NCBI GenBank assembly: GCA_046483495.1
Contig: JAWODC010000057.1
Location: 1-64,000 of the forward strand
Direction of reading: 5' to 3'
Source: Desulfobacterales bacterium
Lineage (GTDB): Bacteria > Desulfobacterota > Desulfobacteria > Desulfobacterales > UBA5616
DNA: 64,000 nucleotides
The notes beneath the pieces are model-generated. The model saw nothing but the letters and a program-made list of their open reading frames with translations. It did not search any database and was not told where the DNA came from. Shown here one piece after another: positions 55,325-58,209 of the stretch (positions are counted from its first letter, which is position 1; every line of letters begins with the position of its first letter). The translations under genes were made by a program, and so were the position numbers.

Positions 55325-55353
55325 TGGACACATCGTCAAGAAATGGTTATAAT
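55325..55353 (+). promoter_or_regulatory. Sigma-70 promoter of the microprotein gene
   Basis: TGGACA-N17-TATAAT. Confidence 0.65.
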
Positions 55354-55377
55354 GATGAAAAATTACAGGAGGTAATG

Positions 55378-55527
55378 ATGGAAGCCATAATTATGCTGTT
55401 GATTTTAGTGGGAGGATGGATCCTACTGCAGGCGTATATACTGCCTAAAATGGGAATCTCCACGTGAATGCGCCCCGCCTGTCGGGAGACGGGAAAAAAA
55501 CAATCCAAAACCGAAGATGAGGGATAA
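55378..55527 (+). CDS. Probable 49-aa single-TM selenoprotein (T-U-M-x-x-x-C)
   Basis: AGGAGG RBS, then MEAIIMLLILVGGWILLQAYILPKMGIST-TGA-MRPACRETGKKQSKTEDEG-TAA. A hairpin follows the TGA, and the terminator begins right after the TAA. Confidence 0.62.
55478..55493 (+). promoter_or_regulatory. SECIS-like hairpin
   Basis: CCTGTC-GGGA-GACGGG, 10 nt after TGA 55465-55467. Confidence 0.55.
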
Positions 55528-55530
55528 TTA

Positions 55531-55566
55531 AAAACGCCGGGAAACAATTCCCGGCGTTTTCATTTT
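55531..55566. terminator. Bidirectional intrinsic terminator
   Basis: AAAACGCCGGGAA-ACAA-TTCCCGGCGTTTT between convergent genes. Confidence 0.8.
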
Positions 55567-55612: not shown

Positions 55613-56131
55613 TTAGAACCTGTAATGGACACCCGCCGTTACATTGATCCCGTCCAGTTTAAGTTCCGCATCCATATCATCGATATCAACATTGATAAAA
55701 TTGTAGCCGACTTCCCAGTTGAAACCCAGTTCCGGGAGTCCCTGAAAGCTGTATTCGGCACCGAGCATCGGACCGGCCATCCAGAGATTATCATCGGTAA
55801 AATCATCGATGTCGTATTGACCGTAAGCGAAATCGGCTCCGACATAGAACTTGCTGTTTTCACGGATCACGGCCGCATACATCAATTTGGCATCCAAGAT
55901 CCATATATCGGCTTCGAGGTCAGGACCGTCGACATCGGCATGGCCGTAGAAGAAGGTTCCCTCGTATCCAAATGCATCGCTCCATCCACGAACGCTGATA
56001 CCGCTTAGGAGATTGCTACCGGTACCGATCAGCCCTTGATATCCGACACTCAGCTCCTGTGCACCTGCCGAACCCACGCCAAAAGCCAGTGCTACCACCA
56101 ACGCTAAAACCCACAACGATCTTTTCATCAT
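55613..56131 (-). CDS. Outer-membrane beta-barrel protein
   Basis: Signal peptide ending AGA-Q, alternating beta-strand pattern and C-terminal GVHYRF. Confidence 0.8.
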   Translation of the reverse strand: MMKRSLWVLALVVALAFGVGSAGAQELSVGYQGLIGTGSNLLSGISVRGWSDAFGYEGTFFYGHADVDGPDLEADIWILDAKLMYAAVIRENSKFYVGADFAYGQYDIDDFTDDNLWMAGPMLGAEYSFQGLPELGFNWEVGYNFINVDIDDMDAELKLDGINVTAGVHYRF

Positions 56132-56944: not shown

Positions 56945-57433
56945 CTATAAATCGTAAAGCGTATCGTCATGCACCGGACGGAATACTTTCACTTGCTTGC
57001 CCTGGGTCCCCGGCATCAAAAAAGGATCTTCACTCTCCAGTATATCTCCCAGTTCGGCCTCGACCGTTTCGGGATCCTCTCCCTTTTCCATTCGGCTGAG
57101 CGCCTCCTCCATTCCGGAGCCCAGTTTAAGGCCGGACATATCGGACAATTTTCGCATCAATGCGGCCGCCTGTCTGGGGTCGTCCTCGTTGACGTTCTCC
57201 GCCTCGCCCGCCAGCATATTCATTGCCTTCTCCATTTTTGATTCGTCAAACGGGAAATCGCTCTCATCCTCCGAATCTTTTGCTTTTCCCGTAATGGCAA
57301 ACAGGCTTACCTGGCGCGTCAGTTTTCGAGTTTTGCATTTCGGGCAGTCCGGATTTTTTTTGGTGTTAACGGTTTTGGAAAAAAAATTGAAGATCCTATT
57401 GCAGTTATCGCAGTAAAATTCGTATATCGGCAT
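56945..57433 (-). CDS. FmdB family zinc-ribbon protein
   Basis: MPIYEFYCDNC..CPKC. Confidence 0.85.
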   Translation of the reverse strand: MPIYEFYCDNCNRIFNFFSKTVNTKKNPDCPKCKTRKLTRQVSLFAITGKAKDSEDESDFPFDESKMEKAMNMLAGEAENVNEDDPRQAAALMRKLSDMSGLKLGSGMEEALSRMEKGEDPETVEAELGDILESEDPFLMPGTQGKQVKVFRPVHDDTLYDL

Positions 57434-57897: not shown

Positions 57898-58209
57898 ATG
57901 GTCGAAGTTACGCAACAGGCTACAGAACAGGTTGCCGAGTATTTTAAAGAAAGAGAAATCTCTCCCATCAGAATTTTTTTGCATGAAGGCGGTTGAGGCG
58001 GACCATCACTTGCAATGGCTCTGGACGAGCCAAAAAGCACGGATGAGCGTTTCGAAATCGATGGTTTTGAATATATTATTGACAAAGAGCTCATGGAAAA
58101 AGCCAAACCCATCAAAATCGATTTTCAGGGGATGGGTTTCAAGCTCGACTGCGGGCTCGATTTCAGCGCGTCTCCAGGCTGTGCCGGGTGCGGTTCCTCT
58201 TGCGGATAG
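57898..58209 (+). CDS. HesB/IscA-like selenoprotein, 103 aa
   Basis: AGGAGG RBS, then MVEVTQQA...IRIFLHEGG-TGA-GGPSLAMALDEP..., the known GGUGGP..ALDE signature. C-terminal CAGCGSSC. Confidence 0.9.
58016..58032 (+). promoter_or_regulatory. SECIS-like hairpin
   Basis: TGGCTC-TGGAC-GAGCCA, 19 nt after TGA 57994-57996. Confidence 0.6.

Follow-up and report, generated by a model that had tools for sequence, protein, structure and literature searches.

A 49-residue membrane microprotein, very likely containing selenocysteine, from an under-catalogued family in Desulfobacterales

The window, by which we mean the whole 64,000-nucleotide stretch of Desulfobacterales DNA analysed here, contains a small gene that the first-pass annotation described as a stand-alone transcription unit for a selenopeptide of 49 residues. 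The promoter, ribosome-binding site, reading frame, TGA, hairpin, TAA and terminator were each found where that annotation had placed them, and the ORF track does indeed display the gene only as the closing part of a 510-aa frame. The features are as follows:

55325..55353, + strand: sigma70-type promoter-like site, TGGACA-N17-TATAAT, matching 11 of 12 consensus positions
55367..55372, + strand: Shine-Dalgarno sequence AGGAGG, 5 nt before the ATG at 55378 (from the sequence)
55378..55527, + strand: reading frame of a predicted 49-aa selenoprotein with a helix at about residues 2-22, LPxxG[IV]xT, Sec30, Cys35 and a charged tail (translation with TGA as U, and homologues)
55465..55467, + strand: in-frame TGA, codon 30, the predicted selenocysteine codon (conservation, and Cys replacement in homologues)
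55478..55493, + strand: SECIS-type hairpin of 6 bp, CCTGTC-GGGA-GACGGG, overlapping the Cys35 codon (bacterial SECIS model, and covariation)
55480..55482, + strand: Cys35 codon, the predicted resolving Cys of U-x4-C (conservation across 187 genes)
55531..55566, no strand assigned: intrinsic-terminator-like hairpin of 13 bp with an A-tract before it and a U-tract after it (-21.2 kcal/mol, z = -7.5)

There are 29 codons from the ATG at 55378 to the TGA, then 19 more, and a TAA at 55525-55527; an alternative ATG at 55375 sits only 2 nt from the AGGAGG. The TGGACA-N17-TATAAT match is weak when taken alone and is not beyond chance, as a scan found four promoter-like sites per 2 kb around the locus where 3.2 are expected. 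Of the 187 homologues, 42 have a T[GT]GACA element in the 90 nt before the gene, compared with 3 of 186 background windows. This element precedes only 6 of 75 distant homologues, and a -10 box (TA...T) accompanies it in only 11 homologues. The site at 55325-55353 may act as a promoter. At the other end of the gene, an outer-membrane beta-barrel gene (55613-56131, - strand) converges on the terminator, which is probably shared between the two genes and may be used in both directions; a simple terminator scan did not report this hairpin. The hairpin at 55531 is strong, but its fit to the TAA, as claimed earlier, is weak evidence, since it could equally serve the convergent gene. The gene is a stand-alone unit in the window's genome, whereas elsewhere the family is often found in operons.

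An AlphaFold model of the protein contains a single membrane helix, with residues 2-20 at a pLDDT of about 90 and the remainder at low confidence, and hydrophobicity peaks at residues 4-22. The helix thus spans about residues 2-22 only, and not all 29 codons before the TGA as had been proposed. A conserved LPxxG[IV]xT linker joins it to Sec30-x4-Cys35, and the charged tail that follows is variable, with a median of 24 residues. Lys and Arg are commoner on the C-terminal side of the helix than on the N-terminal side in 186 of 187 genes. By the positive-inside rule alone the protein would be N-out/C-in, with the Sec30/Cys35 pair facing the cytoplasm. We also considered a lipoprotein in which residue 30 is lipidated. 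The lipobox rule calls for Gly, Ala or Ser at -1, directly after the hydrophobic stretch. This candidate was rejected because Thr occupies -1 in 180 of 187 genes; Pro, Lys, Arg or Gln stands at -2 in 42 of them, the lipobox is absent, and eight polar or kinked residues separate the helix from the Sec site.

A tblastn-confirmed scan of GTDB genomes returned 248 relatives. The 80 of these that were listed are mostly from Desulfobacterales and other deltaproteobacterial genomes, and the host group appears to be the phylum Desulfobacterota. The gene was matched in 51 of 61 related genomes and, with the window's own genome counted, in 135 of 301 sampled genomes across the phylum (about 45%). A further sample, meant for another phylum by way of a Nitrospinaceae-labelled locus, fell in the same phylum; 43 of its 101 genomes were matched, many of them at contig positions already in the 301-genome sample. 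We found no second copy in the window's genome and no relatives in viral contigs or PLSDB plasmids. One relative, L107:1273-1659 (G047:C244), has the gene in two tandem copies, with the TGA and the Cys in both. Metatranscriptome contigs of relatives, from other organisms, cover a D. widdelii-like gene, and one of them continues into an ECF gene; such contigs cannot show transcription or translation. Outside the phylum, the range of the family is indicated by the LCP-89 entries of deep-Sep and by one unnamed ESM Atlas cluster at 0.88, which we treat as a lead only; five of its 123 members have a record, most often Planctomycetota.

By the first-pass annotation, homologues that end at this position with TAA or TAG would count against selenocysteine. 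What we found is TGA at codon 30 in all of the 102 distinct close homologues (110 close loci, 111 hits). The real ends of these genes use TAA, TGA and TAG alike, and ahead of the TGA the codons differ by synonymous changes, with Leu, Pro and Gly held constant. From 140 phylum-wide places we examined 90, the 30 best and 60 chosen down the ranking, and TGA was kept in 89: 88 at the aligned codon, with L188 having it one codon later. A weak hit of 17.6 bits, L200 (G161:C11:52757-52852), has TAA at the Sec site and a Cys six codons later; its genome has selA, and the hit is either a decayed copy or due to chance. The pooled set consists of 187 distinct TGA genes, for which 903 TGA stops in the window's genome served as controls. 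In every one of the 187 genes the frame remains open for at least 11 codons past the TGA, as compared with 68% of the control stops.

Two database searches, from which we took the best 120 of 607 and the best 150 of 1017 matches, provided 263 homologous proteins. At the Sec site 184 of these end, 40 have Trp and 31 have Cys; the rest are five proteins with Arg, Gly or Ser at the site, one unrelated repeat protein and two proteins that lack the anchor motif. The Trp entries presumably come from gene calling under a code in which TGA is Trp. Both the Cys homologues at position 30 and the conserved downstream Cys for which the first-pass annotation had hoped are therefore present. The downstream Cys is found at +5 in 161 of the 187 TGA genes, at +6 in 11 and at other offsets in six, with none within 12 codons in the remaining nine. 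A Cys at +5 or +6 is thus found in 172 of 187 genes, against 4.8% of control stops, and it is one-codon insertions that shift it to +6, with the frame kept. In 30 of the 31 Cys forms, on which no SECIS imposes a constraint, there is also a Cys at +5 (C-x4-C), a figure that is inflated because the profile used to find these forms favours Cys35. TGC or TGT at the Sec site was confirmed in the DNA of 15 distinct Cys-form genes. The Met at +1 is kept in 21 of the 31 Cys forms; the persistence of this Met and of the +5 Cys points to constraints on a protein rather than to a restart signal or an RNA artefact. One branch (L151, L153, L172, L176, L177, L179, L181 and L193) retains the TGA and the hairpin and has lost the downstream Cys, making it a lone-Sec variant.

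The GGGA loop of the hairpin begins 16 nt after the TGA, and the fold has an energy of -9.4 kcal/mol (z = -0.35). By itself so small a hairpin is unremarkable, and it counts as evidence through its conservation. The passage of PMC13188914 that defines the bSECIS gives a loop 16-37 nt after the UGA, a G in the first two loop positions, a stem of at least 4 bp and an MFE of at most -7.5, and the window's hairpin satisfies the model as defined there. For the family we used a looser rule, which is not that of bSECISearch: a loop of 3-9 nt starting 15-29 nt after the codon, a G in the first two loop bases, at least four pairs and -3 kcal/mol or lower. By this rule the hairpin is present in 167 of the 187 TGA genes, whereas it occurs at 128 of the 903 control stops and in 3 of the 15 genes with a Cys codon. 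The 75 distant TGA genes have quite different sequences, and 73 of them host the hairpin. In a covariation analysis of 50 hand-picked sequences, 89% of the cells of a 7-bp stem were paired, and 30 changes were two-sided. This exceeds all 500 shuffles and all slid controls, in a test that kinship inflates, as the set is mostly close relatives; two further measures were not above the shuffles. The conserved hairpin that had been predicted is thus found, together with compensatory base changes.

The window's genome encodes tRNA-Sec, selA and selB. Across the phylum sample selA is above the cut-off in 281 of 301 genomes, which leaves little contrast for comparing TGA forms with Sec-encoding genomes. 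Five gene-bearing genomes lack a selA match, and all of them have selB and tRNA-Sec; a sixth, G341, has a weak selA match only. The recognised selenoprotein that had been noted in the same window is real: an IscA/HesB-family selenoprotein (NF038090, scoring 103 bits where the cut-off is 85) lies at 57898-58209 on the + strand, with its TGA at 57994. It is 2.4 kb from the 49-aa gene, and the ORF track begins it only after the TGA.

In sequence comparison, the invariant TGA, the exchange of Sec and Cys, the conservation of Cys35 and the covarying hairpin all support selenocysteine. We are therefore highly confident in predicting that the in-frame UGA is read as selenocysteine, resulting in a membrane protein of 49 residues. 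The checks proposed on Cys homologues, the downstream Cys and the hairpin all came out in favour, and they strongly support the original proposal that read-through at Sec gives a membrane protein of 49 aa bearing a U-x4-C pair.

The accompanying claim of an unannotated, novel family fared less well, since the family has been predicted before. The 49-aa gene belongs to a family that has already been predicted in supplementary tables, with no function described in the literature searched. One entry of that family, from D. widdelii PP31, contains the translation of our locus L037; over 49 residues L037 and the window protein share 59% identity (E 4e-13). All six entries show the helix, LPxxGxxT-U and downstream Cys that are seen in the window protein. 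Table S3 of PMC5029168 (2016) lists "Unknown (Geobacter lovleyi)" in five organisms; this is probably the same family, a link made by name alone as the table is without sequences. Pfam gave no match for the window protein or for 29 Cys forms, while NCBIfam, with an E-value limit of 1, gave no family for the window protein and only sub-threshold, unrelated hits for the Cys forms. None of the 119 prokaryotic selenoprotein families in Table 1 of a 2026 review names it. The paper that first predicted the family was not traced: the term "lovleyi" is missing from the main texts of PMC2398784, PMC5029168, PMC9312934, PMC13188914 and PMC12013277, and from the supplements of PMC2398784 and deep-Sep Table S1. 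PMC1914089 lists other Geobacter candidates, and the first part of the BSepDB supplement is a genome list. A full-text search for "lovleyi" and "selenoprotein" found no functional study of the family; subscription journals, bioRxiv supplements and BSepDB lay outside this search. What this analysis adds to the previous listing is breadth, the Cys homologues, covariation in the SECIS, the topology and the genomic neighbourhood.

At the window's locus the neighbours are a metallo-beta-lactamase-fold gene and the outer-membrane barrel, and an FmdB-type zinc-ribbon protein is encoded nearby (56945-57433, - strand). Short FmdB zinc-ribbon genes also lie directly upstream of the distant homologues L129, L163, L187 and L194. 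We surveyed 76 distant loci, scanning 74 upstream and 72 downstream ORFs. At five of the 76, the co-directional upstream gene within 38 nt is a thioredoxin (three) or AhpC/TSA (two). The window's genome has only four and two matches to these families, respectively, and from these six matches a rough expectation is about 0.1, assuming an estimated 3,800 or so genes and with kinship uncorrected. Further neighbours at the distant loci are NifU, DsrE, CMD, rubrerythrin, ArsR, MerR-family (four) and FmdB zinc-ribbon (three) genes; most neighbours are unrelated to redox. At 27 of 188 loci a 4Fe-4S protein (with a Tat signal hit in one) and a Pfam-less membrane protein precede the gene, which apparently closes an operon for a membrane redox complex (e.g. 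L043:149-628, L107:502-1065 and L023:1078-2523).

The Cys forms add to this picture. Among 20 Cys-form metagenome loci, 11 (L201-L211) place the gene between a thioredoxin and a CcdA/DsbD gene, which in L201 is a thioredoxin fusion; these 11 are one related clade and so are not independent evidence. Three further loci follow a thioredoxin-like gene. In the L201-L211 clade a DUF6132 (PF19628) gene is directly upstream of the Cys form, as seen in the five loci that were translated, where it lies between the Cys form and the thioredoxin: L201, L202 (456-659), L204, L206 and L209. DUF6132 is itself a small membrane protein, with a C-x-S-G-x-C loop that resembles the C-M-S-G-A-C of Cys forms. However, two hydrophobic segments flank its loop, and the likeness is an analogy only. 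Membership in DUF6132 was rejected, as neither the window protein nor 29 Cys forms hit PF19628 while the neighbouring gene does. A full-text literature search for DUF6132 returned no relevant paper.

Given selenocysteine, a membrane-tethered Sec/Cys redox mechanism is reasonably probable. In this explanation, which we favour by a little, the single-helix protein would be a cytoplasm-facing Sec30-x4-Cys35 redox switch that is recycled by thioredoxin; judging from the topology and the gene neighbours, a redox-switch job is likely. SelB would bind the hairpin and deliver selenocysteine at the UGA. At the membrane surface Sec30 could then react with an oxidant, with reactive sulfur species or with a partner disulfide; Cys35 would resolve the oxidised Sec30 into a selenenylsulfide ring, and cytoplasmic thioredoxin may re-reduce this ring. 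Redox rings of the C-x4-C type occur in the large flavoproteins glutathione reductase, lipoamide dehydrogenase and mercuric reductase. The spacing is the same, but the 49-aa protein is without a folded domain or a cofactor site. Points against the selenocysteine redox switch are the gene neighbours, mostly unrelated to redox at distant loci and a metallo-beta-lactamase-fold gene and an outer-membrane barrel in the window's genome, the lone-Sec genes, the TAA in L200 and the Arg, Gly or Ser in five database proteins. Because nine of the 187 Sec genes have no second Cys in the next 12 codons, the ring cannot be essential everywhere.

These same lone-Sec genes would suit a one-residue carrier, and an alternative that we consider unlikely is that the selenoprotein is a membrane carrier or sensor of sulfane sulfur (persulfide or polysulfide), possibly feeding an ECF sigma and zinc anti-sigma pair. 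Genes consistent with this lie next to it in the same direction, namely DsrE (L139), NifU (L156), a metallo-beta-lactamase fold (L199), NrfD (L188) and DUF302 (L162 and the Cys form L214), or on the opposite strand, namely a rhodanese (L134) and a YeeE-type transporter (L197). Each of the sulfur-handling neighbours is seen once, however, and thioredoxin-fold neighbours recur more often. An ECF sigma factor is downstream in 55 of 188 loci and a soluble zf-HC2 anti-sigma in 52, but the ECF link is found in 51 of 102 close loci and 2 of 76 distant ones; being nearly confined to close relatives, it is not independent evidence. The window's genome has no close match to the ECF sigma (32% identity at best) and none to the anti-sigma.

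The regulators and zinc ribbons nearby raise another idea, a rather improbable one: that the Sec/Cys pair provides ligands for an Fe-S cluster or for a soft metal or metalloid (Hg, As, Cu), making the protein a membrane-anchored chaperone for a transporter. An ArsR-family gene (L193, 2 nt away), MerR-family genes (L169, L174, L190 and L192) and the FmdB zinc ribbons are found upstream, and some Cys forms are near RND efflux genes (L218 and L219). MerR-family hits need not be metal sensors. Moreover, the protein offers two ligands only, one of them dispensable, and Pfam scans of the flanking ORFs contained no metal ATPase and no mer or ars structural gene.

Finally, it is most improbable that the TGA is a true stop that ends a 29-aa membrane peptide, followed by an RNA element or a tiny second ORF restarting at the next ATG: the 29-aa form of 184 of the 263 database proteins, the ATG found right after the TGA in 115 of 187 genes and the position of the Cys35 codon within the hairpin stem are set against a site that never carries TAA or TAG in close homologues, 63 of 187 genes with no start codon at +1, in-frame shifts of the Cys to +6, and Cys forms that are continuous ORFs with the +1 Met largely kept. 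Stop and restart was rejected on these start-codon counts and on Cys-form conservation. UGA read-through is usually incomplete, so a short form probably exists as well.

Returning to the thioredoxin-recycled redox switch, a broader proposal, and for the present a doubtful one, is that the family is an anchor of about 50 residues without an enzyme fold. It would be a minimal Sec-x4-Cys shuttle linking cytoplasmic thioredoxin to CcdA-type trans-membrane electron transport, with a DUF6132 partner on the other face, and would rank among the most frequent selenoproteins in sulfate reducers and their relatives. An architectural analogy, and only that, can be drawn with the eukaryotic membrane selenoproteins SELENOS and SELENOK. 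SELENOS has been proposed, in the account given in PMC3628699, to form a Sec188-Cys174 selenosulfide, and SELENOK is described in 10.1101/2021.05.15.444318 as carrying Sec in a disordered segment. Both differ from the window protein in being much longer and in having a 3'-UTR SECIS, and the Sec of SELENOS is far from the membrane.

In summary, on the strength of its homologues the microprotein is real and very likely contains selenocysteine, and its family is uncharacterised and under-catalogued. The gene corrects a gap in annotation and opens no new class. Gene callers cut the family to 29 residues or read its TGA as Trp in 224 of the 263 database homologues, and the 2026 catalogue, Pfam and NCBIfam all omit it. 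Nevertheless, about 45% of the genomes sampled in the phylum carry it, against five organisms recorded in 2016. The redox model is cheap to test, as a peptide of 49 residues can be synthesised and assayed directly. If the proposed shuttle is true, it would be a bacterial counterpart of SELENOK and SELENOS and the simplest membrane selenoprotein that could serve as a tractable model.
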